64,000 nucleotides of DNA from Minisyncoccota bacterium. GTDB taxonomy: Bacteria > Patescibacteriota > Minisyncoccia > Phycocordibacterales > UBA5272. The stretch lies in NCBI GenBank assembly GCA_041651055.1, contig JBAZJW010000001.1, forward strand, positions 627,521-691,520, written 5' to 3'. The notes under the pieces are model-generated. The model was not told the origin of the DNA and made no database searches. It saw only the letters and a program-made list of their open reading frames with translations. The stretch's first letter is position 1, and every line of letters starts with the position of its first letter. Of the stretch, positions 688 through 56,927 are shown piece by piece. Both the position numbers and the translations under genes were made by a program.

Positions 688-3600
688 ATGAAAAAATATA
701 TACTACCCGTGCTTTTATTGGCGTTGTCTTTTACAAGCGTTCAAGCACAGGCAGCGCCAACAACTTCTTCAAGTTGTACAGATCTTCCATATAACTTAGG
801 TTACGGATCTAATGATAGATATACACAAGGGGGTGTGACTCGTCTTCAGAATTTTCTTAATGCAAATGGTTTCTTGAAAGCACCCTCATCTGGATTTTTT
901 GGAAACGGAACAGTTTCTGCTGTGAAAGATTTTCAAGCAGCTAAAGGATTGAATCGTTCTGGGTATGTGGGGCAACAAACAAGAGATTTAATAAAGAGCA
1001 TGACATGTGGAGGTTCTGGGGTAGGTGCTACCTCCGGAGCTGTTTGGTCTACTTTTCTTGCAACACCAACTCTTGTCTCAACTTCTCCTGTATCTCAATT
1101 TGTAACAGGTGGTTCAAATTTCGGTATTGCAACATTTAGAGTTAGGACTGCACAATCAGGAGTACAGACGACAGTGAGAGAGCTACGCTTTTCTACAACA
1201 GGTACTGATGCAATTCAAAGCATTACTGTTGGTGGAATAACGGCTCCAGTTGTTGGTTCAGGTCTCGGTGCTACTACAACTATTTCAGGTCTCAACATTC
1301 CCGTTACTTCAAATGGTGCAGATATTCCTGTAACAGTGAAGTTTTCCGGATTTCAGAATACGACATCAGGAGGATTTCTTATTGCAGATGTTCCTGATGT
1401 AAAAGTAACCCTTGGTTATGTAGAGGCAGTAGATAGTACATCTGGTAGAGTTATTTACAATGCCTCAGCGGTTAGTTCAAATACTTTTACACTCGTTGCT
1501 TCAAAGCCTTCTGTAACAGTTGGTTCAGGCGGTCAGAATAGTCTTGTTCTTGGTGCTGAAAATAAAATAGGGGAGTTTACAGTGAGTGCTGACGCGAACG
1601 GGAAAATAGGCATGAGAACTTTAGTCCTATTACTTTCAACAATTGGAATCACAAATCCAAGCTTCTTGTCTCCAAGAATAACTGATGGAAATACAGTGGT
1701 AACGTTGTCTGATATATCTGTGTCAGGAGGTGGTACTGTAAACATAGCTTTCCCTTTTGCTTATGAAATACAAGCAGGGCAGTCAAAAACATTCTCACTT
1801 TACGCAACGGTGAAAGGTACTCAGACAAGTGGCACCATTGTGCCCTCTGTTAGTTCCCGATTTGCTCCAAGTAACTCTTTTGCTTGGACTGATATCTTGG
1901 GTGGGAACATACCACAAATGAGTGATAACATCCCAACGAATAGTTACACAACAAGTAGGAGTGGTTCAAGCGTTGCTGCTCCAACTGTTACCGCTTCAGA
2001 ACCAGTGATTAAAATAGAGGCTTCATCTGCAAATAAAACAAACAACTCAGCACTATCTGTAAACATCGGTGACACGTTTACTGTTTCAGGTGCCCCACAA
2101 AATATACAAGGATTGTCTTATTACAGTGGTAATGGATATCCAACGACAGGGTATTACAGTAGAGCTTTCTTCTTTGATCAAAACTTTGGTAACAATAATG
2201 TTTGCGGAAACAATGACGCTGCCACAAATGCGGTTTGGACAATGACATGTACAGCGAAAGTTTCTGGTTCAAGTAATTTCTACATAGAAATTTATGCAAA
2301 TGGTCAAGTATATAAATCAAATGTGGTTAATGTGACAGTGAATCCCTCCACCGCTGTTGTTACACCATCAACACCTATGGATCTTTCTGATACGACAATG
2401 TATGTCATGAGAATGTCGGCAGGATTAGTCCCTACGGATATGCGTTATGATATTGATGGTGACGGAAGAATCACATCTGCAGATGCAATTGCTTATTCTA
2501 AAGTAACTTCGATGCCAGATGTGGCGACATATAAAGATATTGCTAAATATGTTCTTAAGATGGCAGTAGGACTTTTCCCTAAAGATCTTAAGTATGACTT
2601 AAATAAGGACGGAAGAATTTCATCAGCCGATGCTTTGGCATATGAAAGATTAAGTATTCCAGTAGTTCCGACTGTTTCGCCAACAACACCTTCAGCTCAA
2701 ACACCATCCCCTGTAACATCTTATCCAACCCCAACGAATTCACCAACTGTTCCCACAACTCAAACACAGGTAATCCCTCAGTCTTCTCCAGTATCTACAC
2801 CGAGTGCGATGCCAGATCTTTATGGATACTATTACCTTGATTACAATGCCTCACGTAATGATCTAAACAGCCTTGCTTCATATACAAACTTTGGGTCTGC
2901 TCAATCCGTAGAACAAGTACCACTCCTTGTAAGTAAAGGGTTTAAGAATATTATGTATGTGGCTTTGATTTCTGATTCACTTCAAAAGTTACTTGCGAGT
3001 GAAGGCATTAATGCAAATGGGGGAGTAGGTTCAACGTATGATTTCAGAACTATTCCTAATTATGAAAGTAAAATGCTTGCGGTGTACAAGGAAGATTTGA
3101 TGGCATTGAAGAATAAACTTGCTGCAAATGGAACGCTTGGTAATGTTACGGTGTTCTTTACAGTGGACGAACCAGCACTACACAGAAACTATATCCCTAA
3201 TCAGGCTTTCTTGGAAAATGTAGAGAAGACTTTCAAGACAGTATTCCCAGATAAGAAATCAACAATGGCATTCGCAGAAGATCCTGCAAGCTCAGCATCA
3301 TTCCCATTCCGTGGAGCACATATGAATCCTCCTACTACACTTGATGTCGTAACAGTTGATCCGTATTTCTTTGGAAAGAATACTATTGGGTGTTCTCAGT
3401 CGGAAATAAAGAAATTCCTTTATACAGATAATCCAAATTCTACCATTGGATGGGCGAAGCAGTTCGGTAAGCCTGTCTATGTAGCGGCGGATGCAATGAT
3501 TATTAATGGTTCTGCACTACCAGAGTGTTATTACAAGGAAACATATAATATTGTTAAAGGTGACTCACAAATAAAAGGACTCATTTGGTTTATGTATGAT

Positions 3601-4263
3601 AGTTCATTTGGTGACGATGTTAGTAAAGGTACATCAGTAAATCCATCTTTAATTAATTTAATTAAAGGATTTACAACAGTGCCAACGGTCACCTTAAATA
3701 ATTTTGTTCCCTCTACTATTGAAGTAGGTAAGAATTCTATTATTTCATTCACTTCAACAAACGCGGACACATGTATCGGTACAGGAACAGGTCCAAATGG
3801 TCAGGCGTTATGGAATGGTAACTTAGGGGGAACATATACACCAGCAGGTGGGAAAAGTACCGCTAATCTATATCCATCAGGAATGAGTGCTGGTATCTAT
3901 TCACAAACAATTACATGTACGGGGCTTGGTGGATCAGCAACATCTGAAACAAAAGTGCTTACTGTTGTTCCAAAACTAACAATGGCAGCTGGTTCTTCAA
4001 ATTCTCGTGTTCTAGGTGCATATGCAACAGGGGTGTGTACAAATCTCCCATACAACATCCATCGTGGTAACGAGTCATCATCAACTCGTAACCTTCAGTC
4101 ATTCCTCATCACAAAAGGATTACTTGATGGTAATGCTACCGGCTTCTACGGAGATAAAACAGTAGAAGCAGTAAAAGCATATCAAGCATCAAATGACCTC
4201 CCAACTACAGGCATGGTCTACTCTTTCACACGAGAAGCTATACGAGCTGAAAGCTGCCAGTAA
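688..4263 (+). CDS. giant secreted cell-surface protein with N- and C-terminal PG-binding-like domains, Ig-like repeats, a dockerin-like module and a possible glycoside-hydrolase-like domain
   Basis: 1191-aa ORF. Signal peptide MKKYILPVLLLALSFTSVQAQA. N-terminal C...LQNFL..G.L....GFFG..T..AVKDFQ..KGL...GYVG..T domain ending in a Cys. Two 22-aa Ca-binding repeats YDIDGDGRITSADAIAY and YDLNKDGRISSADALAY. Pro/Thr-rich linker. C-terminal copy of the PG-binding-like domain ending AESCQ. Confidence 0.85.
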   Translation: MKKYILPVLLLALSFTSVQAQAAPTTSSSCTDLPYNLGYGSNDRYTQGGVTRLQNFLNANGFLKAPSSGFFGNGTVSAVKDFQAAKGLNRSGYVGQQTRDLIKSMTCGGSGVGATSGAVWSTFLATPTLVSTSPVSQFVTGGSNFGIATFRVRTAQSGVQTTVRELRFSTTGTDAIQSITVGGITAPVVGSGLGATTTISGLNIPVTSNGADIPVTVKFSGFQNTTSGGFLIADVPDVKVTLGYVEAVDSTSGRVIYNASAVSSNTFTLVASKPSVTVGSGGQNSLVLGAENKIGEFTVSADANGKIGMRTLVLLLSTIGITNPSFLSPRITDGNTVVTLSDISVSGGGTVNIAFPFAYEIQAGQSKTFSLYATVKGTQTSGTIVPSVSSRFAPSNSFAWTDILGGNIPQMSDNIPTNSYTTSRSGSSVAAPTVTASEPVIKIEASSANKTNNSALSVNIGDTFTVSGAPQNIQGLSYYSGNGYPTTGYYSRAFFFDQNFGNNNVCGNNDAATNAVWTMTCTAKVSGSSNFYIEIYANGQVYKSNVVNVTVNPSTAVVTPSTPMDLSDTTMYVMRMSAGLVPTDMRYDIDGDGRITSADAIAYSKVTSMPDVATYKDIAKYVLKMAVGLFPKDLKYDLNKDGRISSADALAYERLSIPVVPTVSPTTPSAQTPSPVTSYPTPTNSPTVPTTQTQVIPQSSPVSTPSAMPDLYGYYYLDYNASRNDLNSLASYTNFGSAQSVEQVPLLVSKGFKNIMYVALISDSLQKLLASEGINANGGVGSTYDFRTIPNYESKMLAVYKEDLMALKNKLAANGTLGNVTVFFTVDEPALHRNYIPNQAFLENVEKTFKTVFPDKKSTMAFAEDPASSASFPFRGAHMNPPTTLDVVTVDPYFFGKNTIGCSQSEIKKFLYTDNPNSTIGWAKQFGKPVYVAADAMIINGSALPECYYKETYNIVKGDSQIKGLIWFMYDSSFGDDVSKGTSVNPSLINLIKGFTTVPTVTLNNFVPSTIEVGKNSIISFTSTNADTCIGTGTGPNGQALWNGNLGGTYTPAGGKSTANLYPSGMSAGIYSQTITCTGLGGSATSETKVLTVVPKLTMAAGSSNSRVLGAYATGVCTNLPYNIHRGNESSSTRNLQSFLITKGLLDGNATGFYGDKTVEAVKAYQASNDLPTTGMVYSFTREAIRAESCQ

Positions 4264-4305
4264 CAGCTTAAAGCTAAAGGCTGGAAGCTAGAAGAAAATA
4301 CAGAG
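4205..4305 (+). repeat. ~100-nt segment identical to 11005-11105 (3' end and 3' flank of two paralogous surface-protein genes)
   Basis: Direct comparison of the two stretches ...ggcatggtctactctttcacacgagaagctatacgagctgaaagctgccagtaacagcttaaagctaaaggctggaagctagaagaaaatacag... Confidence 0.85.
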
Positions 4306-4335
4306 CGACCCCGAAGGGGTCGCTCTCTATTTTGC
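4303..4335 (+). terminator. rho-independent terminator
   Basis: AGAGCGACCCC-GAA-GGGGTCGCTCT hairpin followed by CTATTTTG. Confidence 0.7.
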
Positions 4336-4345
4336 CTTATCCCCA

Positions 4346-4351
4346 TATACT
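4346..4351 (+). promoter_or_regulatory. putative -10 (TATACT) within the conserved tatccccatatactaatcaaa upstream motif
   Basis: Motif shared with 7541-7563 upstream of the paralog at 7602. Confidence 0.3.
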
Positions 4352-4402
4352 AATCAAAAATTAGAAATAAGGAGTTATACTTACTTTATATTCTAATATC
4401 CT

Positions 4403-7400
4403 ATGAAAAAATATATACTACCTGTGCTTTTATTAGCGTTGTCTTTTACAAACGTTCAAGCACAGGCAGTGCCTACAACTTCTTCAAGTTGTACAGATCT
4501 TTCATATAACTTAGGGTATGGGTCTAATGATGGACGCACAAACGGAGAAGTCACCAAGCTTCAGACCTTTTTGAGTTCATTAGGTTACTTAAAAGATAAA
4601 CCTAATGGTTATTTTGGTAGGAGTACTTTTGGGGCTTTAAAAAGTTTTCAATTAAGCAAAGGTTTAACCAATTCTGGATATGCAGGACAGCAAACAAGGG
4701 GTGTGATTAAGAAGATGACGTGTGGTAGTATCCCGACTTCTTCTATGAATTCTTCGGACTTCAAGTTTCCCGATCAAACATCTGTACTAACAAAGTCCAG
4801 TGTGCTTCCCAAACTTGTAGTAAGTGGAACACAATCAAAACCAGGCCTCGTCTTGTGTGGTGATGGTGTAGTGGACAAACCGTCCATAGACGCTGGCCCC
4901 ATTCTCACAAGTTGTTTTCTGGCGAATAAAAATGCCGGAATTATTGAACTTTTACCTGGAAAGTATTATATAAAAAGTACTATTGATATCGGCAATCTTT
5001 CAAACATCACTATTAAAACAAAGGGTGTTTCTTCCGGGTCAGCCTGTTTACAGGTGGGTTCGGCACCATGTGCTGTTCTTTTTGCAACAGCAGATAATAA
5101 AGGGCCTGTGATTTTGAAGAGTGAGGGTGCTTCAAAGCTCAATCTTTTTTATATTGCGATTGATGGAAATCGTCTTGCAAGATGGTCGCCGGGCACTACT
5201 CCTAATTGGATAAAAAATAATGAGACTGATAAATATGGTACAGCTTACAATGCGGCAATTCGTTACTGTGATAAGTGTCATTTTACAGGGTTTGCATCGG
5301 TGCGTGCTCCAAAAGGGACAGGGTTAGAGTTTATCGGTGCTGATGCAGTTTTTGATACCACCTTGTTCAGTGATAATGGTTGGCAGTTGTCAGATTGGTT
5401 TTCGAGCAATCCAGAAGCAGGGGCTTTTGCTGATGGGTTAACAGCTCTTATTTCAGAACGTATTGTTATTCGTAATTCAGAATTTTCTAATAATTCAGAC
5501 ATAAATCTTATCTTGGGGGACGCACCAGGGGCAGTTATTGAGAATAATATAATAAAAAGTGATAATAAGTTTGTTTTTGCGGGACTTATGGTTGATAATT
5601 TTATGCGTATTAACAATGTAATCAAGGGTCGTTTTGACGGTACTGTTATTAGAAATAATACTATCAGTTGTGGTAATGGATTATGTGGAATTGGTATTGA
5701 TGTTGGTCCGTATCTTTGGTATGCAAAAAAAGGAGAAACTAATGTGGATGTTGAACGAGTAACTGGTGGAATAATTGCAAACAATACAGTTTTTGGAGCA
5801 CGTCAAGGTATTTTAGTTTCTGGGGCTTCGGGTACTACAATTAATAATAATACTGTTAATGTTGCTGGTACATTTAAGACACCTGTTGGTCATTATAAGA
5901 AATTGAATGATTATCAAACAAGAGAATGTGTTACAAACAGTATATCTGCTTCTCAAGGCGATACGGTAACTATTTCTGATAATAAAAATAGTCAAGGGCA
6001 AACTGTTGTTACTACTTCGAATGAACTACGTGAATGTCACCCGTATGATCTTTCGGATGCTGTTCTTGATCTTTCTGTTCCTACTATCCCACCAACCCCA
6101 ACAGCTGTAATAACTCCTACCGTCACAGCATCCTGGTCACCTTCTATCATTACATCAGGTCAAGCAGCCACACTCACATGGTCATCAACCAACGCAACCT
6201 ATTGTAATGTTTCTCACCCAAACAACACCAATACTTGGAACAATGCTCCAACGAGTCGCACCACCCCTTACTCAAGTGTTATTACATCAGACACTACAAC
6301 TGTTACGTGTTACAACTCTACAGGGCAGTCGGATTCTAAGACGGTAACATTAACGGTGAATCCGGTTATTCTACCAACCCCAACAGCTGTAATAACTCCT
6401 ACCGTCACAGCATCCTGGTCACCTTCTACCATTACATCAGGTCAAGCAGCCACACTCACATGGTCATCAACCAACGCAACCTATTGTAATGTTTCTCACC
6501 CGAACAATATTAATCCTTGGAACAATGCTCCAACGAGTCGCACCACCCCTTACTCAAGTGTTATTACATCAGACACTACAACCATTACGTGTTACAACCA
6601 AGCAGGGCAGTCGGATTCTGAGACTGTGACGTTGACGGTGAATCAGCCATCTTTTTGTACAGACTTTACATATTCTGATTATAGTCTTTGTCAGTCTGGT
6701 GGTATAAAAACAAGATCAGTTGTGTCTTCTTCTCCACAAGGATGCACTGGAGGGGTCCCTTTAACGTCTATTAGTTGTTCGTATGTTGTCAAGACAACTA
6801 AAGTAAATACTCTCTACAACATTTTTCTCCGCAGAAATTCTGATCCGTCAGGGGAGCTATCGTTTCAGAATCAACTTTCAAAGGGGGCTACTCTTGCTGA
6901 TGTAGCTTGGGTCCTTCTTACCTCTCCAGAAGGAATTGCTACTAACGGAGTCAATGTCCAGACCATGTCTGTTGATTCTTATGTTGAGTTTCTTTACACA
7001 GCAGTTTTGAAGCGTCCTTCAGACGTAGAAGGTAAAAGATATTGGGTTGCTACTGTTAACGCAGGAGTGACGCGTAAGTCAGCCCTTAGTTCTTTTCTTG
7101 ATTCCCCGGAATCAAAAATAACTAACTCAAATCTTTTCCTTTCATATAATTTACAAAATTCTTCATCTATTTCGGTTGACGATAAAAGTATCCCAACTGT
7201 GCTTGGTGATTATATATCCGTACCTTCGTGTATCAATCTTCCACAAAACCTTCATCGCGGAGCAGAATCTTCGTTAGTTAGGCTCCTCCAGTCATTCCTT
7301 ATTGCAAAAGGATTGCTTGCTGGTAATGCAACCGGTTTCTACGGAGACAAAACAGTAGAAGCAGTAAAAGCATATCAGTCTTCTGTGAACCTCCCAGCTA

Positions 7401-7456
7401 CTGGTATGGTGTATGACTTTACTCGTAACGCTATTAAGGTAGAGAGTTGTCAGTAA
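4403..7456 (+). CDS. giant secreted surface protein: PG-binding-like N- and C-terminal domains, right-handed beta-helix (pectate-lyase-like) repeats, two tandem Ig-like repeats, DUF4214-like segment
   Basis: 1017-aa ORF. Signal peptide MKKYILPVLLLALSFTNVQAQA; first ~130 nt nearly identical to 688-820. NN(T/I)I..N/G-rich parallel beta-helix repeats (NNTISCGNGLCGIGIDVG). LYNIFLRRNSDPSGELSFQNQL resembles DUF4214. C-terminal LQSFLIAKGLLAGNATGFYGDKTVEAVKAYQ domain. Confidence 0.85.
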   Translation: MKKYILPVLLLALSFTNVQAQAVPTTSSSCTDLSYNLGYGSNDGRTNGEVTKLQTFLSSLGYLKDKPNGYFGRSTFGALKSFQLSKGLTNSGYAGQQTRGVIKKMTCGSIPTSSMNSSDFKFPDQTSVLTKSSVLPKLVVSGTQSKPGLVLCGDGVVDKPSIDAGPILTSCFLANKNAGIIELLPGKYYIKSTIDIGNLSNITIKTKGVSSGSACLQVGSAPCAVLFATADNKGPVILKSEGASKLNLFYIAIDGNRLARWSPGTTPNWIKNNETDKYGTAYNAAIRYCDKCHFTGFASVRAPKGTGLEFIGADAVFDTTLFSDNGWQLSDWFSSNPEAGAFADGLTALISERIVIRNSEFSNNSDINLILGDAPGAVIENNIIKSDNKFVFAGLMVDNFMRINNVIKGRFDGTVIRNNTISCGNGLCGIGIDVGPYLWYAKKGETNVDVERVTGGIIANNTVFGARQGILVSGASGTTINNNTVNVAGTFKTPVGHYKKLNDYQTRECVTNSISASQGDTVTISDNKNSQGQTVVTTSNELRECHPYDLSDAVLDLSVPTIPPTPTAVITPTVTASWSPSIITSGQAATLTWSSTNATYCNVSHPNNTNTWNNAPTSRTTPYSSVITSDTTTVTCYNSTGQSDSKTVTLTVNPVILPTPTAVITPTVTASWSPSTITSGQAATLTWSSTNATYCNVSHPNNINPWNNAPTSRTTPYSSVITSDTTTITCYNQAGQSDSETVTLTVNQPSFCTDFTYSDYSLCQSGGIKTRSVVSSSPQGCTGGVPLTSISCSYVVKTTKVNTLYNIFLRRNSDPSGELSFQNQLSKGATLADVAWVLLTSPEGIATNGVNVQTMSVDSYVEFLYTAVLKRPSDVEGKRYWVATVNAGVTRKSALSSFLDSPESKITNSNLFLSYNLQNSSSISVDDKSIPTVLGDYISVPSCINLPQNLHRGAESSLVRLLQSFLIAKGLLAGNATGFYGDKTVEAVKAYQSSVNLPATGMVYDFTRNAIKVESCQ
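6092..6655 (+). repeat. tandem duplication of a 282-nt (94-aa) Ig-like domain unit inside the 4403-7456 CDS
   Basis: ccaaccccaacagctgtaataactcctaccgtcacagcatcctggtcacc... occurs at 6092 and again at 6374 with about 95% identity. Confidence 0.9.
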
Positions 7457-7513
7457 TAGGCTGTAGTTAATAGGTTTTGGTTGATGTGATACGAAATACA
7501 GAAAATATGAAAA

Positions 7514-7538
7514 GTGGCCACAAAGTGGCCGCTTTTTG
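7514..7538 (+). terminator. rho-independent terminator
   Basis: GGCCAC-AAA-GTGGCC hairpin followed by GCTTTTTGTG. Confidence 0.55.
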
Positions 7539-7553
7539 TGCCCCTATCCCCAT

Positions 7554-7559
7554 ATAATA
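7554..7559 (+). promoter_or_regulatory. putative -10 (TATAAT) in the conserved tatccccatataataatcaaa motif
   Basis: TATAAT 43 nt upstream of the ATG at 7602; ggaaggggg SD-like at 7573-7581. Confidence 0.35.
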
Positions 7560-7601
7560 ATCAAATAATGAAAGGAAGGGGGTATACTTAACTCATATCC
7601 T

Positions 7602-10600
7602 ATGAAAAAATATATTCTATCCACTCTTTTATTCGCCATATATCTTGGGTTTACAGGGGCTGAAATTGCATCAGCTGTAACGTCTTCTTATTCCATAGCT
7701 CCAGACGTAAACGTACCAGTAGTAACACTCTCTTCAAATGGAAAAAATGTTGTAAATGGTAGCACGGTTTTGATTTCTGATCGTAATGAAGCTACTCTGT
7801 CTTGGACAAGTGTGGGGGCAACGTCGTGTACCTTAAATGGTGTGGCTATACCAACTTCAGGTTCACAGTTATTTAGTAATTTCAAGATTGATTTTGGTTA
7901 TGCTGGTAACATTTTTAGTTGTACAAATGGATTTAAAAGTTCAAGGATACTATTTGACACACTCGGCCGGTCTACTAATGTAGAATCTATAAATATTAGA
8001 GTGATTCCACAATCTACATATGATGTGCGACCAGGAGAACCTGCTCAAATTGCTATCGAGGGTCAGGGTTTTAGCTCATGTACATTAGAATCTGAAGGGG
8101 CTCTTATTAAACTTGTCGAGCCATCAACTAATACAGTACACATAACGCCAGCCCTACAAAAAAATACAACATTCAAAGTTACTTGTACTAGGGGTGAATA
8201 TACTAAAGTTAAGGAGTTTACCATCGAGGTAATTCCAATTAATCCAGTTAAGTCAAAAACTTGCCCATTAGGACAAATCTATTATAGTGCTGAACCGGCC
8301 ATGGTTAATGGTACATATAATAGAGCTTATTTAGGGTGTGCCGAAGCCAAACCTTTTACATGTCTAGATGGATCCACTGTTTACACTAAGATTTTCGATA
8401 AAAGTTCTTCGTTCGCAATAAACGCTCAAGCGTGCTCATATCCAAATGTTACTGACAGTGCTTTATTCGTTAAGGTGGGAGAGGGGGAATATATAGATAG
8501 TCAAACAGAAGGAGTCGCTAATATCACCATTCCTGACAGTGCAAGCGGTAAAATTCTCGTGCTTTATAGTGATAATCCTGTGCATTGGATAATTGCCAAC
8601 CCAAATCATGTTCTCATTAAAAAAATACTTATCTTAGAATTAGAAAGTGGTCTAAATACTCAGCGTGCTGATGGGGATATTCAAAACATACCTCTAGAAA
8701 AGATAAAACTAGGTGGTCGTTTTGGGAATATTACTACTAACTTATTAGGAGGGTTCTATGGGGAGTTATCAGATGAGGTAAATACTTTTTTTAAAAATTC
8801 AGGAAATGATATCAGAGCTCTTATTGTTAGTCTTCTTAAACAAGGTATTTCTTTATCTCCTTACGACTACTATTATGCAAGCAGAGCAAGTGCTTTACCT
8901 GTTGGGGTATCTCCATCACCTACACTGTACACAAAGAAACAGAGTGAAATAGATGCAAAGAAAGCAGAAGAAGATGCAAAGAAAAAAGCAGCAGATGCTG
9001 CAATTGATCGTTTCTGGTTAGGATATAAATTTGCTTCTGGACTTAGTTTTCATAGTTATGTATACGAAAATAAAAATGTTTCAAATGATGCGATATTACA
9101 AAATAGCTATTTTTACTCAGCTGGACCTAGTCCTGTGCCTACGACAAAAGCAGAAGCGATCACTCGATGCAAGGATGACATATTGAGTAAAGTCGGCCAA
9201 GTAGCTCAATGTAAATGGAATGGAGAAGTCTTTGCTTCTTCAACTAATCCTTTACCTATGATGGATAACAAGCTTCTTTTTCCAAGTGGCGCATACAGTG
9301 AATATGATGGGTCTACGCTTATTTACTCTAAGCCTTCAATCTCTGCTATTAATGCAAAAGTTTTCTGTGACATGAGTAAGACCGTCCATCCAAATATTAA
9401 GTGTACTTTTGACGGAATTGATACATCGACACTAGATTTCGCTCGAAAAACTCCTGGATTTTTGCAGATATATGGAGATAGGTTTAGTGGATATTCTAAA
9501 TTTTTTAACTCTTTTGCTACTGGTAATGAAGGGTATAGTGCTGAAAATGACTGTATGCATTACTATACGTATCAGAAGCTTGGCTACATTATGCAAGAAC
9601 CCATTTTTACGGGGAGGTCACCAGAGAAGTACAATATAGAAAACTTTGACAAATCAAAAGCAAATGCTTTAAGAATGGCTTGTTATTGGAATGGACACTA
9701 CTTCTTTTCTTCGCCGGCAAATTACGACCCACTTAATAAACTACCTGAAAGTCTTCCCTCAATATCTTTGCCAGGAACATCATTGTTACGGGAAAGTGCG
9801 CCCTTTGTTGAGGTTAAAGCAAATAAAGGAACAATTCAACTTGGTGAATCTGTGACATTAAACTGGAACAGCATGTACACTGATTCTTGTTCTGCAAGCG
9901 GTGCTTGGAGCGGGGAATTAAGTACTTCTAGCAGTATTCGATCTGGATCTATTACTAAAACCCCAACAGCTCTTGGTGAACAAAAATATATTATTTCTTG
10001 TGCTGGGGTTGGAGGAACAGCAAGACATAGTGTGACTGTGAATGTGATATCTCAAAACGAAGTAAGTTCGTCGAATCAAACGAATACCCTTACACAGAAC
10101 ACTTCTGGTGAACGACTTATCACATCGTTAACTGCAAATCCTTCTACTATTTTTGGAAAAGGTACGACCACAATTACATTTACTTCATCTGGTACGGATT
10201 CTTGCTATATTGGAAATACCCGTTTATCGACTTCGGGAGCATACGTTACTCCTGTGCTTACTTATAATCCATCTTACTCTCCTTCGGTTATTTTTACACT
10301 TAAATGTTTTAAGGGTGAAAGTATGACTTCTAGAAATATATCAATCCTCGTCTCTTCTACTTCTTCTCCTTCTGCTGTATTACCAGCAGGTTGTACTTCT
10401 TCAACAATGTATAGTCCAACGACAGGGGTTCGTTGTCTTGCCACCTTAGCAACTACCCCTGTATGTAACTCAGAGCAGTATCTTGAAAACGGTGTTTGTA
10501 AGAATCTGACTCGTATTTGCCCTGATGGAAGAGTTATATCTGCCATGCTTAGTTGTGGTACATCAACGGTAAGCACTACTGCCACATCAAGTCTTTTGGT

Positions 10601-11063
10601 GTATCGTCAGTATTATGGACCCTCATTACAACAGCAAAGATCAAGAGTAACTAGATCTACAGCTATAAGTCTTTGTGCTGCTCGAGTACGTGCAATACAG
10701 GGACGAAAGACTTCTGGACTTACGACATACAACGATGTATCAAAGATACGATGCACCTGGGGAACAGAACAGCTTTACCCACTCAGGACTTCATCTTTAT
10801 CAGAAGGGTCTCTTGTCCTTGGTTCTTCGACAGTCTGTACCAGCCTCCCATACAACCTTCATCGTGGAGCTGAATCTCCATCAGTAGTTTCTCTTCAGAC
10901 ATTTCTTTCCTCTAAAGGATTCCTAGAAGGAGAAGCTACCGGTTTCTACGGAGACAAAACGGTAGAAGCAGTAAAAGCATATCAATCATCGGTAAATCTC
11001 CCAGCTACAGGAATGGTCTACTCTTTCACACGAGAAGCTATACGAGCTGAAAGCTGCCAGTAA
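7602..11063 (+). CDS. giant secreted surface protein with Ig-like repeats and C-terminal PG-binding-like domain
   Basis: 1153-aa ORF. Signal peptide MKKYILSTLLFAIYLGFTGAEIASA. Several L.W.S....C...G Ig-like units. Last ~75 aa almost identical to the C-terminus of the 688-4263 protein (…GMVYSFTREAIRAESCQ). Confidence 0.85.
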   Translation: MKKYILSTLLFAIYLGFTGAEIASAVTSSYSIAPDVNVPVVTLSSNGKNVVNGSTVLISDRNEATLSWTSVGATSCTLNGVAIPTSGSQLFSNFKIDFGYAGNIFSCTNGFKSSRILFDTLGRSTNVESINIRVIPQSTYDVRPGEPAQIAIEGQGFSSCTLESEGALIKLVEPSTNTVHITPALQKNTTFKVTCTRGEYTKVKEFTIEVIPINPVKSKTCPLGQIYYSAEPAMVNGTYNRAYLGCAEAKPFTCLDGSTVYTKIFDKSSSFAINAQACSYPNVTDSALFVKVGEGEYIDSQTEGVANITIPDSASGKILVLYSDNPVHWIIANPNHVLIKKILILELESGLNTQRADGDIQNIPLEKIKLGGRFGNITTNLLGGFYGELSDEVNTFFKNSGNDIRALIVSLLKQGISLSPYDYYYASRASALPVGVSPSPTLYTKKQSEIDAKKAEEDAKKKAADAAIDRFWLGYKFASGLSFHSYVYENKNVSNDAILQNSYFYSAGPSPVPTTKAEAITRCKDDILSKVGQVAQCKWNGEVFASSTNPLPMMDNKLLFPSGAYSEYDGSTLIYSKPSISAINAKVFCDMSKTVHPNIKCTFDGIDTSTLDFARKTPGFLQIYGDRFSGYSKFFNSFATGNEGYSAENDCMHYYTYQKLGYIMQEPIFTGRSPEKYNIENFDKSKANALRMACYWNGHYFFSSPANYDPLNKLPESLPSISLPGTSLLRESAPFVEVKANKGTIQLGESVTLNWNSMYTDSCSASGAWSGELSTSSSIRSGSITKTPTALGEQKYIISCAGVGGTARHSVTVNVISQNEVSSSNQTNTLTQNTSGERLITSLTANPSTIFGKGTTTITFTSSGTDSCYIGNTRLSTSGAYVTPVLTYNPSYSPSVIFTLKCFKGESMTSRNISILVSSTSSPSAVLPAGCTSSTMYSPTTGVRCLATLATTPVCNSEQYLENGVCKNLTRICPDGRVISAMLSCGTSTVSTTATSSLLVYRQYYGPSLQQQRSRVTRSTAISLCAARVRAIQGRKTSGLTTYNDVSKIRCTWGTEQLYPLRTSSLSEGSLVLGSSTVCTSLPYNLHRGAESPSVVSLQTFLSSKGFLEGEATGFYGDKTVEAVKAYQSSVNLPATGMVYSFTREAIRAESCQ

Positions 11064-50441: not shown

Positions 50442-51228
50442 GTGAATCACTGCTTGATGATAAAAAACGAAACTATAACCAACTAACCCGGAGGCCAAGT
50501 AACGTTTCGTTACTAGCCGCCGATAAGGCGGATTTTATTTTCTCAAAATTGTTAAGCAGATTGCAGTTCTCTGACAACAGAATCCCGTGCACAACACGCG
50601 CAACAGTACTGTTATCCAGTAGTAGAATTTGATTCACTGGGGTCTAGCGGAGTTTGTGACACGGACACATGAAAAAAGACAATACATGTAGAGAGCGGAG
50701 CGGTCCAATCTCTACAGTGATAGTTATGTTTCCTAATAGGAACATAAGAGCACACGGTGGATGCCTAGGCTCTAAAGAGCGATGAAAGACGTTGTCAGGC
50801 TGCGATAAGTTTCGGGGAGGCGCCTAACAGCCCGCGATCCGGAAATTTCTGAATGAGGAAACTCAATGCGAGTAATGTTGCATTGTCATAGCAAGCATTT
50901 GCATGACGCTCACCCAGGGAAGTGAAACATCTCAGTACCTGGAGGAAAAGAAAATAAAAATTATTCTGCAAGTAGCGGCGAGCGAAAACAGAGAAGCCCA
51001 AACCGACAGTAGTAATACTGTGCGGGGTAGTAAGATAGAAACGTAGTTTACTAGAAGAGTTACAAAAGGTATGTATAGATAAAGTTGTTGGAAAGCAACG
51101 CCAAAGAAAGTGATAGCCTTGTTATCGAAATGCATACCCCTCTTTTGTTTCTAATCTTGAGTAATTCGAGACACGAATAGCTCGGATGAATCAACCGGAA
51201 CTAACCGGTAAGGCTAAATATCTTTAGA

Positions 51229-51274
<46 letters not shown>

Positions 51275-52690
51275 GGAAGGGGAGTGAAATAGAACTGAAA
51301 CCGTGTGTTTACAAGGAGTAGAAGAGGGCGCATCACACTGTGTGTGATGCCTTTAAACATTTAAATATTTAAATGTGCATCACGCTTAGCGTGATGCGTC
51401 CTCGACTGCGTGCCTATTGAAGAATGAGCCAACGAGTTATAGGTTACTGCAGGCTAAGTGGTATAAAGTCACGGAGCCATAGCGAAAGCAAGTGTGAATA
51501 GCGCGAACAAATTGTAGTAGCTTATAGACCCGAAGCCGAGTGAGCTTACCATGAGCAGGGTGAAGTTTATCGAAAGGTAAATGGAGGCCCGAACCAGTAG
51601 GTTGTACGACTCCTTTGGATGACTTGTGGTAAGGAGTGAAAAGCTAATCGAACTCGGTAATAGCTGGTTCTCTCCGAAATAGTTTTTGGACTAGCGTCGC
51701 GTGTTCCCTTTGGGGGTAGAGCACTGGAAGGTTTTGACTAGTAGCAATACGGCAACACCTATCAAACTCCGAATACCAAAGGTTAAAAATGCGGCAGTAA
51801 GACCACGGGGGCGAAGCTCCGTCGGTCAAAAGGGAAACAGCCCAGATCTCAAGTTAAGGCCCCAAAGTATATATTAAGTGTAAGCGAGGAGGTGGAGTTT
51901 CATTGACAATGAGGATGTTGGCTTAGAAGCAGCCATCATTGAAAGAAAGCGTAACAGCTCACCCATCGAGAGACTCTGCGCCACAAATAATCGGGACTCA
52001 AATATATCGCCGAAACTGAGGGCTTCATTGGTGTCACAACCATTGGAGCGGTAGGAGAGTGTTCCACTCTGCGTTGAAGCTAAAGGGGTAACCCATAGTG
52101 GAGCGTGTGGAAGTACGAATGTTGGCACAAGTAACCGCAATGGGGGTGAGATCCCCCCACGCCGAAAGAATAAGGTTTCCTATTCAATGATTGTCAGAGT
52201 AGGGTTAGTCGGGCCTAAGGAGATGGCGAATGCCGGATCCGATGGACATAATGTTAATATTCATTAACTCGGTACTAATGTGATGGGATGACGGAGTGTA
52301 GTATATAGAGCGACTTATTGGATTGTCGTTTATTGCGTAAGGGTGAGGTACAGGGAAATCCGTACTTCTGGTTTTAATGCCGACTCCAAGCGTTGTATGA
52401 AGATGATGGGCAACCTGATTCAACTCTATAAAGCACGCTTCCGAGAAAAGTCTCTACATCTGATGCATATCAGACGTGCGCATCGCAGAGCGATGCTTGA
52501 AATTTAAATATGTAAATATTTAAATTTCACATCACTAGGTGATGTGCATGCTTAAGTTAGTATTGATCCGTACCGCAAACCGACACAGGTATTCAGGTCG
52601 AGTAGACCAAGGCGAACGAGTGATATCTCCCTAAGGAACTAGGCAAAAAAGCGGCCGTAAGTTAGCGATAAGGCCTGCCCTCACCACTTT

Positions 52691-53143
52691 GCGTTTAAAG
52701 TCGCAGTGACAAAATTACTTCATCTACTTTGTCGCAGCATCGTTTTTGTCAGTCGCCGTACTATATGTACGACTTCTTCCAAAAGCTCGCTGCTTCTCGT
52801 AGCTAAAGCAATTTTCTCACTGCTTGCAAAAGTGGAGAGTTCTAGGAAATTAGATAAAATATTGAGACAAATCGTAATTACAGTAGAGCTACTGTAATTA
52901 CAAAAACATGTGTAATACGTAAGTAATTGTGGATTTCGTGAAGGAAATGTATGGACCGCGGTAGGTCTGCATCGAGATTTAAGAATCCGATGTGGTGGTG
53001 GCGTTCGACTCGCTATTATTTCATACGTGGACTTCCGGGAAGGTGACTTCCCGTCTTTCACGAAATTCATAATTACAAACTAATTACATACAAAATAGTG
53101 TGATGGAAATCAGTTTCCTCGAGCTCTTCATTACTTTGAAAAT
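52691..53143 (+). other. ~453-nt insertion at the tip of 23S helix 63 (IVS/expansion; non-coding)
   Basis: Flanking stem ctgccctcaccacttt (52675-52690) pairs with aaagtggtgggggc (53144-53157). E. coli has ~40 nt here. No credible ORF. Contains copy D of the 90-nt hairpin repeat. Confidence 0.7.
52715..52820 (+). repeat. copy D of the ~90-nt hairpin repeat family, embedded in the 23S helix-63 insertion
   Basis: TTACTTCATCTACTTTGTCGCAGCATCGTTTTtgtcagtcgCCGTACTATATGTACGACttcttccAAAAGCTCGCTGC... Confidence 0.65.
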
Positions 53144-53303
53144 AAAGTGGTGGGGGCCGCAGCGAAAGTTTCCCTAGCGACTGTTTACCAAAAACACAGC
53201 TTCCTGCGAACACGTAAGTGGATGTATAGGAGGTGACGCCTGACCAATGCGGGAAGGTTAAATATCGGTGGTAATTTATTGCTGGATGATATAAGCCCCC
53301 GTC

Positions 53304-53536
<233 letters not shown>

Positions 53537-54201
53537 AGCGAAATTCCTTGTCTGGTAAGTTCAGACGTGCACGAATGGCGTAACGACTGGGGAACTGTCT
53601 CAGGGAGTAGCTCGGTGAAAATACAGTACCGGTGAAGATGCCGGTTACCCGCAGATAGACGAAAAGACCCCGTGAGCTTTACTCTAGCTTGATATTGAGT
53701 ATGTTCAATTACTGCGTAGCATAGTGACGAGAGGTTTGATGTGTATGGTTTCGGCTGTACTCTACTCGACAGTGAAATAGTCATCTGTAATTGGGCATAC
53801 TCTAACGTGAACGGAAAAAACGTTCGCAGACAGTATCTGGTGGGGAGTTTAACTGGGGCGGTTTCCTCCTAAAAGGTAACGGAGGAGTTTATTAAGGTCA
53901 TCTAGGCGCGAATGGAAACCGTGCCGATAGCGTAAGGGCATAAGATGGCTTGACTGTAAGACGGGCATGTCGAGCAGACACGAAAGTGGGACCTAGTGAA
54001 CCTACACTACGCTTTAGACGCGGGTGCAGATTAACGGATAGAAGCTACCACGGGGATAACAGGCTAGTTGTGCCCAAGAGTTCATATCGACGGCACAGTT
54101 CGGCACCTCGATGTCGGCTCATCTTATCCTGGTGGTGGAGAAGCTACCAAGGGTATGGCTGTTCGCCATTTAAAAAGATACGTGAGCTGGGTTCAAACCG
54201 T

Positions 54202-54683
54202 GGAGGAGTGAATTATACAGAACGATTACTAACGTTATTTTCTCAAATAACATCAGTTAGCAATCAATTCAGTTTTGTATAATTGACTTCTCCTAGTTTG
54301 AACCCGAGGAGTTAAGACTAAACTTAACAAAAAGACATTAATCACGGCGGCATATATCAGTAATGGTATATGGCAAGCCAACTAATATCGGAAGAATCTT
54401 ACTCGAGCAATCGAAAGACAATTCCGAGGGAAGTATTATAGATTTTTTTGGTGAGGGGAGATTGGAATATGAGTGGATCCTCTGCGCGAGCAGTCAGGGT
54501 AACCTCGACCATAACTAATGGTCCTTCCTACCTTTCCTCACCTCTCCTAAAGAATCTAGAATACACCCGTAGAGACTATACGTTGGCAGTCTTGTTAAAA
54601 ACAAGATGAAGCTCTAGTCCGATCCCTTTAGAAATAAAGGTTCTCATGGTTTGGAAACCACAATGAGATGTAAAACACTAATG
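54202..54683 (+). other. 482-nt insertion in 23S domain V near E. coli position ~2590-2595 (GAACGU^CGUGAGACAG); putative ORF-less group I intron
   Basis: Removing 54202-54683 restores gttcaaaccgt|cgtgagacaggttggt. 5' exon ends in U, insert ends in G. No ORF inside. Confidence 0.55.
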
Positions 54684-54736
54684 CGTGAGACAGGTTGGTT
54701 TCCTATCTTCTGCGGGCGTTCGAATATTGAAAAGAT

Positions 54737-54767
<31 letters not shown>

Positions 54768-55208
54768 TGACCTCTGGTGTGTGGGCTCTGACGCCAGTCG
54801 GAGCGCCCAGTAGCTATGTCGGGAATGGATAACTTCTGAAAGCATCTAAGAAGGAAGCCAACTTTAAGATAAGTATTCGTTGAAGGGTCGTAAGAGATTA
54901 TTACGTTGATAGGAGCTAGGTGTACGCACAGTAATGTGTTTAGCCAAGGCTTACTAATTACCCGAATCCTATTAGGAAACATGACTAGCACAAAAGGCTA
55001 GTTAGCGTATGGAGCACTAGTTGTCTACTAGAAAGTTTCATACTGTATTGTCTTTCATGTGGTGTGTGGAGGTTGCATGTTCTTACATTAATACTTCGGT
55101 ATTAATATAAGTCACGTGACTTCCACACACCACAGGAAAGAGTTCTTTTTTCATGTGTTTGATTCTGTATGGCTTGTAAAAGCGATACAAATAACTTGAA
55201 TGGTATAT

Positions 55209-55314
55209 GGAACCGTAGCTCAGCTGGTAGAGCCCTAAACTAGTCTTGAATAAAGATGAGTTTCTTGGGATTCTTAATCCAGGTGCGCAAGTTCGAATCT
55301 TGCCGGTTCTGCCA
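55209..55314 (+). tRNA. tRNA-like gene between 23S and 5S with ~30 extra nt in the anticodon/variable region (anticodon unresolved; possible short intervening sequence or class-II-like arm); CCA encoded
   Basis: GGAACCG-TA-GCTCAGCTGGTAGAGC (acceptor + D arm) ... GCAAGTTCGAATCTTGC (T arm) ... CGGTTCT-G-CCA. The 50 nt between the D and T arms cannot be folded into a canonical 17-nt anticodon arm. Confidence 0.5.
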
Positions 55315-55332
55315 TATACCTTTTGAGGTTTT

Positions 55333-55444
55333 TGTTCTCCTGATTTGGCCCTGGGGTCACACCTTTTCCCATTCCGAACAGAGAAGTTAAGCCCATGTGC
55401 AGCGATGATACTGACATTGTCGGGAAAGTAGCTTGTCGGGAGAA
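55333..55444 (+). rRNA. rrf: 5S rRNA
   Basis: …CCCATTCCGAACAGAGAAGTTAAGCCC…GGGAAAGTAGCTTGTCGGGAGAAC; helix I formed by GTTCTCC/GGGAGAAC. Confidence 0.85.
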
Positions 55445-55457
55445 CAAAGATCTTAAA

Positions 55458-55492
55458 ATACAAAAGCGCGTCGTAAGACGCGCTTTTGTATT
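55458..55492 (+). terminator. rho-independent terminator after the rRNA locus
   Basis: AAAAGCGCGTC-GTAA-GACGCGCTTTTGTATTT. Confidence 0.75.
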
Positions 55493-55547
55493 TCTCTAAA
55501 CTGTACACTGTCGACTCTAAACTAGTTATGTAGTAGTATTTAATGAT

Positions 55548-56927
55548 ATGAATATCACCATTTCTAAAGTAAATAAAAAACAAGCCGTTTCGATTTCTTT
55601 TACTCATGAATTCTCTGTTGATCAGATTTCTCTCACGGGAGCGAATCCTATGATTACTCTCGGTATGAAAGAAGGGTTCACCAAGTTCACACTTGCTCGC
55701 ACGGTGCGTAAAATCGCACGTCTCGCGAAAGGAAGTAAAGAGAAAGATTTTGAAGTGACATTCGACACATGGTACACGCTTGTGTCTGATACGTATACCA
55801 AAGAAGCGTTTGCAGAAATGTTTGCTTATGAGCTTGCGAACGCCGCGTACGAATTTACTACGTACAAGAAGGAGACACTTTCTCAAACGCTCGCCATCAT
55901 TGCTACCGATAAAGTCGTCGTTGATGCATTAAAGAGAGGGATGATCATCGCAGAAGAGTTGAATGCTGCACGTGAACTTATCAATATCCCTGGATCACAT
56001 CTTACACCAGAAGATTTAGCGAATCATGCTAAGAAAGCTGCCGCAGGTGTGAAAAAAGTAATAGTAACTATTCTTGATTCCAAAAAGATGAAAGCGCTTC
56101 GCATGAATGCGGTGCTTGCGGTCGGAGAGAGCTCGCCACATAAGCCGAAGTTTATTTGTATGGAATATAAAGGTGGTGCAGTAAAAGATGCACCGATCGT
56201 ATTTGTCGGAAAAGGGGTGACATTCGACACTGGTGGAAGTAATTTGAAACCAGACGACTACATGAACGGCATGCACATGGATATGGCAGGCGGTGCCATC
56301 GCCATTCACACACTCCTTGCACTTGCTAAGCTGGGTCTTCACAAGAATATTGTCTGCCTCGTACCTGCTGTTGAAAATAGAATCACAGGAGACAGCTATC
56401 TTCCCGGGGATGTTATCGTCGGTATGAGTGGTCTGGCTATTGAAGTGATGAATACCGATGCTGAAGGCCGTGTAATACTTTCTGATGCACTCACCTATGC
56501 TGGCACCTACAAGCCACGAGTGGTCATCGATCTTGCGACCCTCACGGGGGCCGCTGTGGTCGCTCTCGGAACACGTGCATCTGCTGTTTTTTCACCGAGT
56601 GAAGCACTCACGGATACCTTGAAAGCGCTCGGAGAAGATGTGAAGAATTTCATGTGGCCCATGCCTCTCTATGATGAATACAAAGAAGATATTAAGGGTG
56701 ATCTTGGTGGTATTACGAATACCCACAACAAAATGAAACGAAACGGTGGAGCGATAACCGGTGCTATGTTTTTGTATCAATTTGCAAAAGACTATCCATG
56801 GGCACATATCGATATCGCTCCACGTATGGAAAGTATAGAGGGGGATAATCTTGCCACAGGGGCAACGGCAGAACCTCTCTATGCTCTCGTAAAATTCGCA
56901 GAGTCTGTCGATATTTCTTTTCTCTAA
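55548..56927 (+). CDS. pepA: leucyl aminopeptidase (M17 family)
   Basis: M17 signature NTDAEGRV (EVMNTDAEGRVILSDALTYAG); conserved K..D..D..E metal-ligand layout. Confidence 0.85.
   Translation: MNITISKVNKKQAVSISFTHEFSVDQISLTGANPMITLGMKEGFTKFTLARTVRKIARLAKGSKEKDFEVTFDTWYTLVSDTYTKEAFAEMFAYELANAAYEFTTYKKETLSQTLAIIATDKVVVDALKRGMIIAEELNAARELINIPGSHLTPEDLANHAKKAAAGVKKVIVTILDSKKMKALRMNAVLAVGESSPHKPKFICMEYKGGAVKDAPIVFVGKGVTFDTGGSNLKPDDYMNGMHMDMAGGAIAIHTLLALAKLGLHKNIVCLVPAVENRITGDSYLPGDVIVGMSGLAIEVMNTDAEGRVILSDALTYAGTYKPRVVIDLATLTGAAVVALGTRASAVFSPSEALTDTLKALGEDVKNFMWPMPLYDEYKEDIKGDLGGITNTHNKMKRNGGAITGAMFLYQFAKDYPWAHIDIAPRMESIEGDNLATGATAEPLYALVKFAESVDISFL

Follow-up and report, generated by a model that had tools for sequence, protein, structure and literature searches.

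The 23S-5S spacer of this member of Candidatus Paceibacterota (CPR) holds a gene with the outline of a tRNA and too many nucleotides around the anticodon. Is it an interrupted tRNA, a tRNA of unusual build, or an RNA with another task? A sequence-only reading of the locus had offered three answers (an intron-containing tRNA, a class-II-like tRNA and a tRNA-derived processing element in the rRNA transcript) and had proposed running ARAGORN with intron options and comparing the equivalent spacer in related genomes. Here we follow up these proposals for the window, by which we mean the whole 64 kb stretch of DNA analysed. The features of the locus are collected in Table 1.

Table 1. Features of the rRNA unit and parts of the spacer element (window coordinates).
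Feature	Position	Strand	Basis or remark
23S rRNA	50734-54976	+	Rfam RF02541, 2179.5 bits, model 1-2925
23S processing stem, 3′ strand	54967-54987, 55037-55044, 55144-55161	+	pairs with 50662-50741 upstream of 23S; two complementary runs (21 and 18 nt)
Leader strand of extension helix, GGTATAT	55202-55208	+	complementary to 55314-55320; homologous helices in relatives covary
Acceptor stem, GGAACCG/CGGTTCT	55209-55215 with 55304-55310	+	7/7 pairs including G1-U72
U8, A9 and D arm GCTC-AGCTGGTA-GAGC	D arm 55218-55233	+	sequence, Rfam alignment
31-nt insertion, tRNA positions 26/27	55235-55265	+	MAFFT against homologues without insertion; gap opens directly after D stem
Anticodon-arm homologue UGGGA-UUCUUAA-UCCAG	55266-55282	+	CUU at 55273-55275; G-A mismatch at 28-42
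4-nt variable loop, then T arm GCAAG-TTCGAAT-CTTGC	from 55283; T arm 55287-55303	+	sequence, Rfam alignment
G73, then CCA	55311; 55312-55314	+	sequence
Trailer strand of extension helix, ATATACC	55314-55320	+	A76 of CCA included
5S rRNA	55336-55444	+	Rfam RF00001, 61.8 bits; helix I extended by flanking TTGTTC / GAACAA
Terminator-like hairpin GCGCGTC-GTAA-GACGCGC, then T run	55462-55493	+	read in sequence; closes the 23S / tRNA-like / 5S unit

The 23S gene is 4243 nt long against the 2925 positions of its model, and mapping against four relatives showed that the additional 1.3 kb or so consists of many short lineage-specific insertions. These measure 16-200 nt, vary even among close relatives and in several cases are plain hairpins; example sites are 51329-51399, 52478-52507, 52700-53091, 53336-53536, 54145-54329 and 54442-54556. 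Lineage-specific hairpin insertions of 30-71 nt are present in the window 23S, and none of its insertions matched a group I intron. Group I matches were obtained within the 23S genes of relatives (L019 1201-1396, 56.3 bits; L008 2132-2323, 48.8 bits; L024 6568-6907, 37.9 bits), so the clade has true group I introns beside its unclassified insertions.

Downstream of 23S, the 3′ strand of the processing stem is interrupted by a long near-perfect hairpin of about 96 nt (55048-55143; spacer fold z = -9.06), which is found in most relatives with stem changes that are compensated as judged by eye (GTGGTGTGTGGAGG, GTGGTGCGAGGAGG, GTCGTGTGTGGAGG). A repeated TTTCATGTG motif flanks this hairpin. An Rfam search of the spacer at E<=10 also returned microRNA-type matches to it, which we dismissed as chance. 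The tRNA-like element sits between the end of the processing stem (55161) and 5S. A scan from the start of 23S to 5S reported no terminator on the + strand, the same scan having also missed the hairpin at 55462-55493. From the predicted pairings, the transcript appears to be built of three modules (23S, tRNA-like element, 5S), each seated on a helix formed by its flanks. The gene pepA lies just downstream of the unit, and the order 23S, 5S, pepA, rodA is kept in relatives. Its product shows 100% identity with a protein from a Candidatus Paceibacterota MAG, which places the host among the CPR. Since no 16S rRNA gene was detected in the 64 kb of the window, 16S is unlinked from 23S-5S. Opposite the module, 5S and the start of pepA runs an ORF of 267 aa (55083-55886, - strand) that is almost certainly spurious.

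Next, the element itself was compared with known tRNAs. Rfam tRNA (RF00005) matches 55209-55311 end to end (model positions 1-71) with 42.8 bits against a gathering score of 29 and an E-value of 9.5e-06 for the whole window. This bears out the view that an atypical tRNA-like gene (55209-55314, + strand) lies in the spacer between 23S and 5S. Its layout is GGAACCG-TA-GCTC-AGCTGGTA-GAGC-C-[31 nt]-TGGGA-TTCTTAA-TCCAG-GTGC-GCAAG-TTCGAAT-CTTGC-CGGTTCT-G-CCA. The acceptor stem, D arm, T arm and encoded CCA, which had been called canonical, can all be read in the sequence. The hallmarks comprise a 7-bp acceptor stem, a 4-bp D stem and a 5-bp T stem with standard pairs throughout, the TTCGAAT loop, U8, and G18 and G19. 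The surplus that the sequence-only reading had put at about 30 nt amounts to 31, as 42 nt sit where the Rfam model has 11; the interval between the D and T arms, given there as 50 nt, is 53 nt. ARAGORN in its default mode called zero tRNAs anywhere in the 64 kb. The identical sequence is present in a second assembly (ENA ERZ27247363, contig k141_936812), which speaks against an error of a single assembly, with the proviso that the two assemblies may share reads. Another tRNA mimic, the YrlA or bacterial Y RNA family (RF02553), was rejected at 15.5 bits against 69 (E = 2.5).

The 31 additional nucleotides form a compact hairpin. Its outer stem AAACU/AGUUU (55237-55241 with 55259-55263) is followed by a 1x1 internal loop and an inner helix GUCUU/AAGAU (55243-55247 with 55253-55257) closed by the loop GAAUA, with predicted pair probabilities of 0.8-1.0. 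The AAACT/AGTTT stem had thus been correctly spotted, whereas the 17-nt loop it was said to enclose folds into this 5-bp helix with its 5-nt loop. Similarly, the GGAT/ATCC mini-hairpin noted downstream is real but is the homologue of an anticodon arm, with the loop UUCUUAA (Lys, CUU): in the alignment, UGGGA-UUCUUAA-UCCAG lies opposite AGGGA-CUCUUAA-UCCUA, which belongs to a canonical tRNA-Lys(CUU) that stands at the same place in relative L013. The window loop is by itself canonical, with U33, CUU and A37. The element is therefore homologous to tRNA-Lys(CUU), and it is not the single nucleotide 26 of a decoding tRNA that links its D stem to its anticodon stem but 31 nt. Further departures from the L013 tRNA are the G28-A42 mismatch, the 4-nt variable loop, C26, G73 instead of A73, and G1-U72.

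This homology decides against the class-II-like tRNA, in which AAACU/AGUUU would be the anticodon stem and GGAU/AUCC a long variable arm. ARAGORN with introns allowed does return a variant of it, and only this: a strained tRNA-Phe(AAA) that combines a 9-nt intron with a long variable arm. In that model, however, the anticodon stem contains an A-G and an A-A mismatch, and an intron is required on top of the additional arm. The D arm belongs to class I, and the GGGA...UCC hairpin, cast as variable arm, corresponds in the alignment to the anticodon arms of three relatives (L013, L003b and L027). As it would also require a 17-nt anticodon loop, we rejected this reading, which we regard as extremely improbable. 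A lower-threshold ARAGORN run added an overlapping minus-strand Leu model, which was rejected along with the contrived Phe(AAA) model.

Is the hairpin then an intron? Group I introns in bacterial tRNAs are about 200 nt or longer and are inserted in the anticodon loop, and archaeal-type intron junctions form a bulge-helix-bulge with 3-nt bulges 4 bp apart. Rfam at E<=10 on 54950-55500 returned no intron family, and RF00028 (group I) was absent; the RF00028 matches in the 23S of relatives show that the search is able to detect group I introns in this clade. Inspection of the insertion junctions revealed no bulge-helix-bulge, as the flanked hairpin consists of 5 bp, a 1x1 loop and 5 bp without 3-nt bulges. 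Together with the 31-nt length and the site at 26/27, these results leave the intron-containing tRNA of the sequence-only reading unsupported, and it is weakened further by sister elements that carry unrelated insertions at other sites.

A functional tRNA-Lys(CUU) could still arise if the hairpin were removed from the RNA, by an unknown kind of splicing or by RNase III-type excision as in rRNA intervening sequences, leaving a ligated or a two-piece tRNA. When any 31-nt block starting in the insertion region is deleted in silico, the precise removal of the insertion included, ARAGORN reports the remaining 75 nt as tRNA-Lys(ctt), and the compactness of the hairpin fits such an excision. Two sister modules (L016a and L020) likewise allow a reading as tRNAs interrupted by 75-105 nt within the anticodon loop or close to it. 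In addition, most CPR rRNA insertions are predicted introns according to a comparison of genes with transcripts (Brown 2015, to the extent that it is cited in PMC9297842). Against excision stand the negative intron and ribozyme searches in the window element and in its insertion-bearing relatives, a length far below that of group I or group II introns, and the lack of a bulge-helix-bulge. Moreover, no splicing endonuclease is to our knowledge present in bacteria, and we know of no bacterial intron at position 26/27. The 'spliced' product would keep the G-A mismatch in its anticodon stem, the 4-nt variable loop and G73, and in most sister modules the anticodon loop is defective with no insertion involved. 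Removal of the hairpin thus seems to us quite unlikely.

Alternatively, the hairpin could be retained in a functional five-armed tRNA-Lys(CUU), projecting from the junction of the D and anticodon stems opposite the variable loop. The intact acceptor, D and T arms and the 7-nt UUCUUAA loop would allow this, and when the three arms are enforced the predicted fold consists of the insertion hairpin and the anticodon-like hairpin at -31.2 kcal/mol. However, the unconstrained minimum free energy fold of the window element (-34.3 kcal/mol) forms neither the D nor the anticodon arm, and an arm at 26/27 is not known to us from any natural tRNA. The further non-canonical features of this copy and the family-wide lack of a decoding constraint described below also argue against a five-armed tRNA, and we hold it to be very unlikely.

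We then turned to the 23S-5S spacers of relatives, which were gathered by 5S-pattern scans and pepA look-ups. Of 28 distinct spacers obtained, 17 contain one or two tRNA-shaped modules and 11 contain none, modules being recognised by intact T and acceptor arms so that copies decayed in these arms would be missed. Among 21 modules, the anticodon arm is canonical in only three, namely L013 (Lys CUU), L007 (Ala GGC, with the identity pair G3:U70) and L030 (Gln UUG). The anticodon domain is non-canonical in the other 18. Anticodon loops of 4 nt (L023a), 5 nt (L021a), 6 nt (L012, L008, L022, L016b and L023b), 8 nt (L014) and 10 nt (L027) were found, as well as a 7-bp anticodon stem (L032) and loops without U33, which have G33, C33 or A33 instead (L003b, L018 and L021b). 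Insertions in the anticodon region occur in the window (31 nt), L003a (52), L020 (about 78), L016a (105) and L024 (about 115), and insertions in the D loop in L008 (37 nt) and L023a (46). All length changes seen lie in the anticodon region or the D loop, in a set picked by intact T and acceptor arms.

The insertions have little in common. With blastn-short, no second copy of the 31-nt insertion was found in the window or any fetched locus, and the sister modules' insertions showed no similarity to one another, which leaves a shared mobile mini-element unsupported. Nor did the relatives reached through pepA homologues (P0024 with 82% and P0025 with 77% identity; P0002, P0007 and P0008) have a homologue of the insertion, their contigs either beginning within pepA or having a spacer without a module. 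An Rfam search at E<=1 of five insertion-bearing relatives recorded no ribozyme or intron family inside the modules. It is conceivable that the 31-nt hairpin and the unrelated sister insertions of 37 to about 115 nt are undescribed short bacterial intervening sequences whose excision needs neither a group I or II core nor a bulge-helix-bulge (RNase III-type cuts would be one way) and gives a spliced or two-piece functional tRNA-Lys(CUU), or else that the RNA functions with five arms; taken together, we judge these options unlikely.

Several other features of the relatives' spacers were recorded. Two modules per spacer are present in L003/L025 (7137-7260 and 7301-7372), L016 (328-504 and 546-617), L021 (1020-1091 and 1137-1211) and L023 (1182-1298 and 1340-1410). 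The 5S-proximal module of these pairs is of a distinct type, with a D arm ACCA...AGGT, a 3′ end TCCT or GCCT instead of CCA, and an extension helix of 13-15 bp. ARAGORN names the modules of paired spacers Asn(ATT), SeC(TCA), Ala(AGC) or '???', which is misleading for annotation. GC-rich insertions of 100-300 nt occur in the spacers of L001 (3060-3220), L028, L007, L014 and L027; they had no Rfam match, are often nested in a CATGTAGTGAGAAG...CTTCTCACTACATG hairpin and have a GC content unlike that of the host genomes.

To see what is conserved, we analysed the acceptor, D and T stems of 19 modules. Pairing stands at 96.1%, and 12 of the 16 stem pairs show double-sided changes; doubly changed cells number 62, where the shuffles lead one to expect 16. 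The covariation score was reached by 0 of 500 shuffles, and slid-partner controls were 44-52% paired. Four close relatives (L013, L018, L003 and L027) illustrate the pattern: their spacer flanks are about 95% identical as judged by eye and the aligned 5′ part of their 5S is identical, whereas their module bodies are far more diverged, yet fully paired. Comparison of the top half (acceptor and T arm) with the bottom half by identity in orthologous pairs gave a mixed result. Constraint acts on pairing and arm architecture and not on the sequence of the top half.

Most modules are in addition flanked by a leader-trailer helix of 7-15 bp, with a run of at least 7 bp in 16 of 19. In the window, the extension helix GGTATAT/ATATACC prolongs the acceptor stem past a 3-nt bulge. 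Two types recur. The first has 7-12 bp with an invariant TATATG/CATATA core, a mismatch always at -2/74 and covarying outer pairs, and the second has 13-15 bp (ATTTTAGG/CCTAAAAT) and is compensated in L016b as ATGTTAGG/CCTAACAT. The L030 module has an unrelated leader-trailer helix of 11 bp. Shuffle tests of single elements give the extension helix little support, since its flanks are AT-rich palindromes; the case for it rests on its recurrence from module to module and on compensated changes. The ordinary tRNA-Thr(UGU) genes of the window genome and of L031, the only ordinary tRNAs reached, have no such helix, in contrast to most spacer modules.

Only one ordinary tRNA was found in about 82 kb of window and flanks, a tRNA-Thr in the roughly 18 kb outside the window. 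This tRNA-Thr(UGU), downstream of the window (L037 19162-19238), ends in ...AAGCGGC-T-CCC and does not encode CCA, unlike the spacer module, whose encoded CCA overlaps the extension helix.

Could the element simply be a decaying tRNA-Lys(CUU) pseudogene, redundant wherever tRNA-Lys(UUU) exists and evolving neutrally with no role in processing? Several observations fit this explanation: the presence of modules is patchy, with 11 of 28 spacers empty; the spacer closest to that of the window by hairpin sequence (L019/L031) is without a module; the window copy departs from a canonical tRNA-Lys at the points listed above; and the acceptor stems of the L027 and L014 modules contain two mismatches each. 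Neutral decay, however, does not predict stems that stay paired through heavy turnover, with the excess of doubly changed cells noted above, nor an extension helix that is kept through compensations. Length changes confined to the anticodon region or the D loop argue in the same direction, subject to the selection of modules by intact T and acceptor arms. Above all, diverged but fully paired module bodies beside conserved flanks are, in our judgement of these alignments, hard to reconcile with neutral decay. We consider the pseudogene explanation rather unlikely.

The explanation that we find fairly probable derives the element from tRNA-Lys(CUU) and makes it a tRNA-like module of the 23S-5S precursor, neither a decoding tRNA nor an intron-bearing gene. 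Among the proposals of the sequence-only reading, the tRNA-derived processing element best fits the comparative evidence, with cleavage as the presumed step. The Paceibacterota modules would form a clade-specific set, in which the acceptor, D and T stems and the leader-trailer helix are apparently under selection, and the anticodon domain and the D loop are apparently free to change length and to take hairpin insertions. At the level of the family, the module thus seems not to be constrained for decoding (18 of 21 with a non-canonical anticodon domain, the other stems 96% paired); the canonical UUCUUAA loop of the window copy counts against a non-decoding role for that copy alone. The 31-nt hairpin at 26/27 is then a tolerated insertion, of the same kind as the hairpin insertions in the 23S of this genome, which suggests that the same mutational process acts on the module and on 23S at tolerant sites.

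For such a module we propose the following mechanism. It would be transcribed together with 23S and 5S, and its cloverleaf would fold on its own stem, with the 23S processing stem on one side and the extended helix I of 5S on the other. The tRNA-end nucleases RNase P or RNase Z would recognise the acceptor/T-arm half, and/or RNase III would act through the helix made up of extension, acceptor and stacked T stem, roughly 17-22 bp. A cut at the module would part the 23S trailer from pre-5S, so that its role is probably that of a processing signal for nucleases, a handle that separates the two, and the RNA would presumably escape aminoacylation. Some features set limits to this scheme. A leader-trailer helix that continues the acceptor stem is expected to hinder RNase P, and an encoded CCA inhibits some bacterial RNase Z enzymes. 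As 11 of 28 spacers lack a module, it is dispensable for 23S and 5S maturation in the clade.

The modules are best classed as a bacterial counterpart of known tRNA-like elements in rRNA transcripts. In Haloferax volcanii, tRNase Z cleaves a tRNA-like structure that precedes 5S (Hoelzle et al. 2008 RNA 14:928, cited in PMC7714728 and PMC3296008). Both systems share a non-decoding tRNA shape in the rRNA transcript directly upstream of 5S, where it is, or in our case would be, a handle for nucleases; in the window, the tRNA-shaped fold at 55209-55314 precedes 5S at 55336, and the scan found no + strand terminator from 23S to 5S. The tRNase Z cut in Haloferax reportedly makes the 5S 5′ end directly. 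The window module, in contrast, stops some 21-25 nt short of 5S, so that the mature 5S 5′ end could not come from one cut at it. It also differs in being bacterial (CPR) and not archaeal, in being a full cloverleaf with a CCA-like 3′ end and its own leader-trailer helix, in being missing from many relatives, and in that its cleavage is a prediction.

Other known systems resemble it in part. Plant mitochondrial t-elements and other tRNA-like processing signals mark sites for cleavage by RNase P or RNase Z within longer transcripts (PMC1920247); these are organellar or eukaryotic and usually more reduced, and the processing role of the window module is putative. Genuine tRNAs between 23S and 5S are known from CPR genomes, as are tRNAs with group I introns (Lui et al. 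2021, PMC8172020). The modules resemble such operon tRNAs in being tRNA-shaped genes beside rRNA genes, and those of L013 (Lys), L007 (Ala) and L030 (Gln) look normal, whereas most modules of the clade, including that of the window, have anticodon domains unfit for standard decoding. The insertion itself is comparable to rRNA intervening sequences and CPR rRNA insertions (Brown et al. 2015, from its citation in PMC9297842) in being a short lineage-specific hairpin at a tolerant site, except that its host RNA is tRNA-shaped. With archaeal introns at non-canonical positions and bacterial group I tRNA introns it shares the interrupted tRNA gene whose length is restored by removal in silico; it differs in measuring 31 nt at 26/27 in a bacterial host, with neither a bulge-helix-bulge nor a group I match. 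Our text searches of the literature returned no account of bacterial or CPR 23S-5S spacers that contain tRNA-like modules with a degenerate anticodon.

If our interpretation holds, an ultra-small CPR clade punctuates 23S and 5S with tRNA-shaped modules, each on its own processing helix, and hairpin insertions of the sort known in CPR rRNAs also reach tRNA-shaped RNAs. The module family would be a natural experiment on the parts of a tRNA that processing enzymes need. For annotation, Rfam calls the modules tRNAs, and ARAGORN does the same when they are free of insertions ('tRNA-Asn(ATT)', 'tRNA-SeC', 'tRNA-???'), and the tRNA inventories of CPR are thereby inflated or distorted.

Two observations outside the rRNA unit concern PG_binding_1 domains. 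Positions 688-11063 of the window encode three consecutive large ORFs of 1191, 1017 and 1153 aa, each with PG_binding_1 domains according to the Pfam hits of the matching assembly; their products are possibly surface or cell-wall proteins of the sort seen in episymbiotic CPR. In the sequence that immediately precedes the window (L036 3598-9844), a 450-aa PG_binding_1 protein and a 130-aa ORF split rpsL from rpsG and thus interrupt the S12 / S7 / EF-G order.
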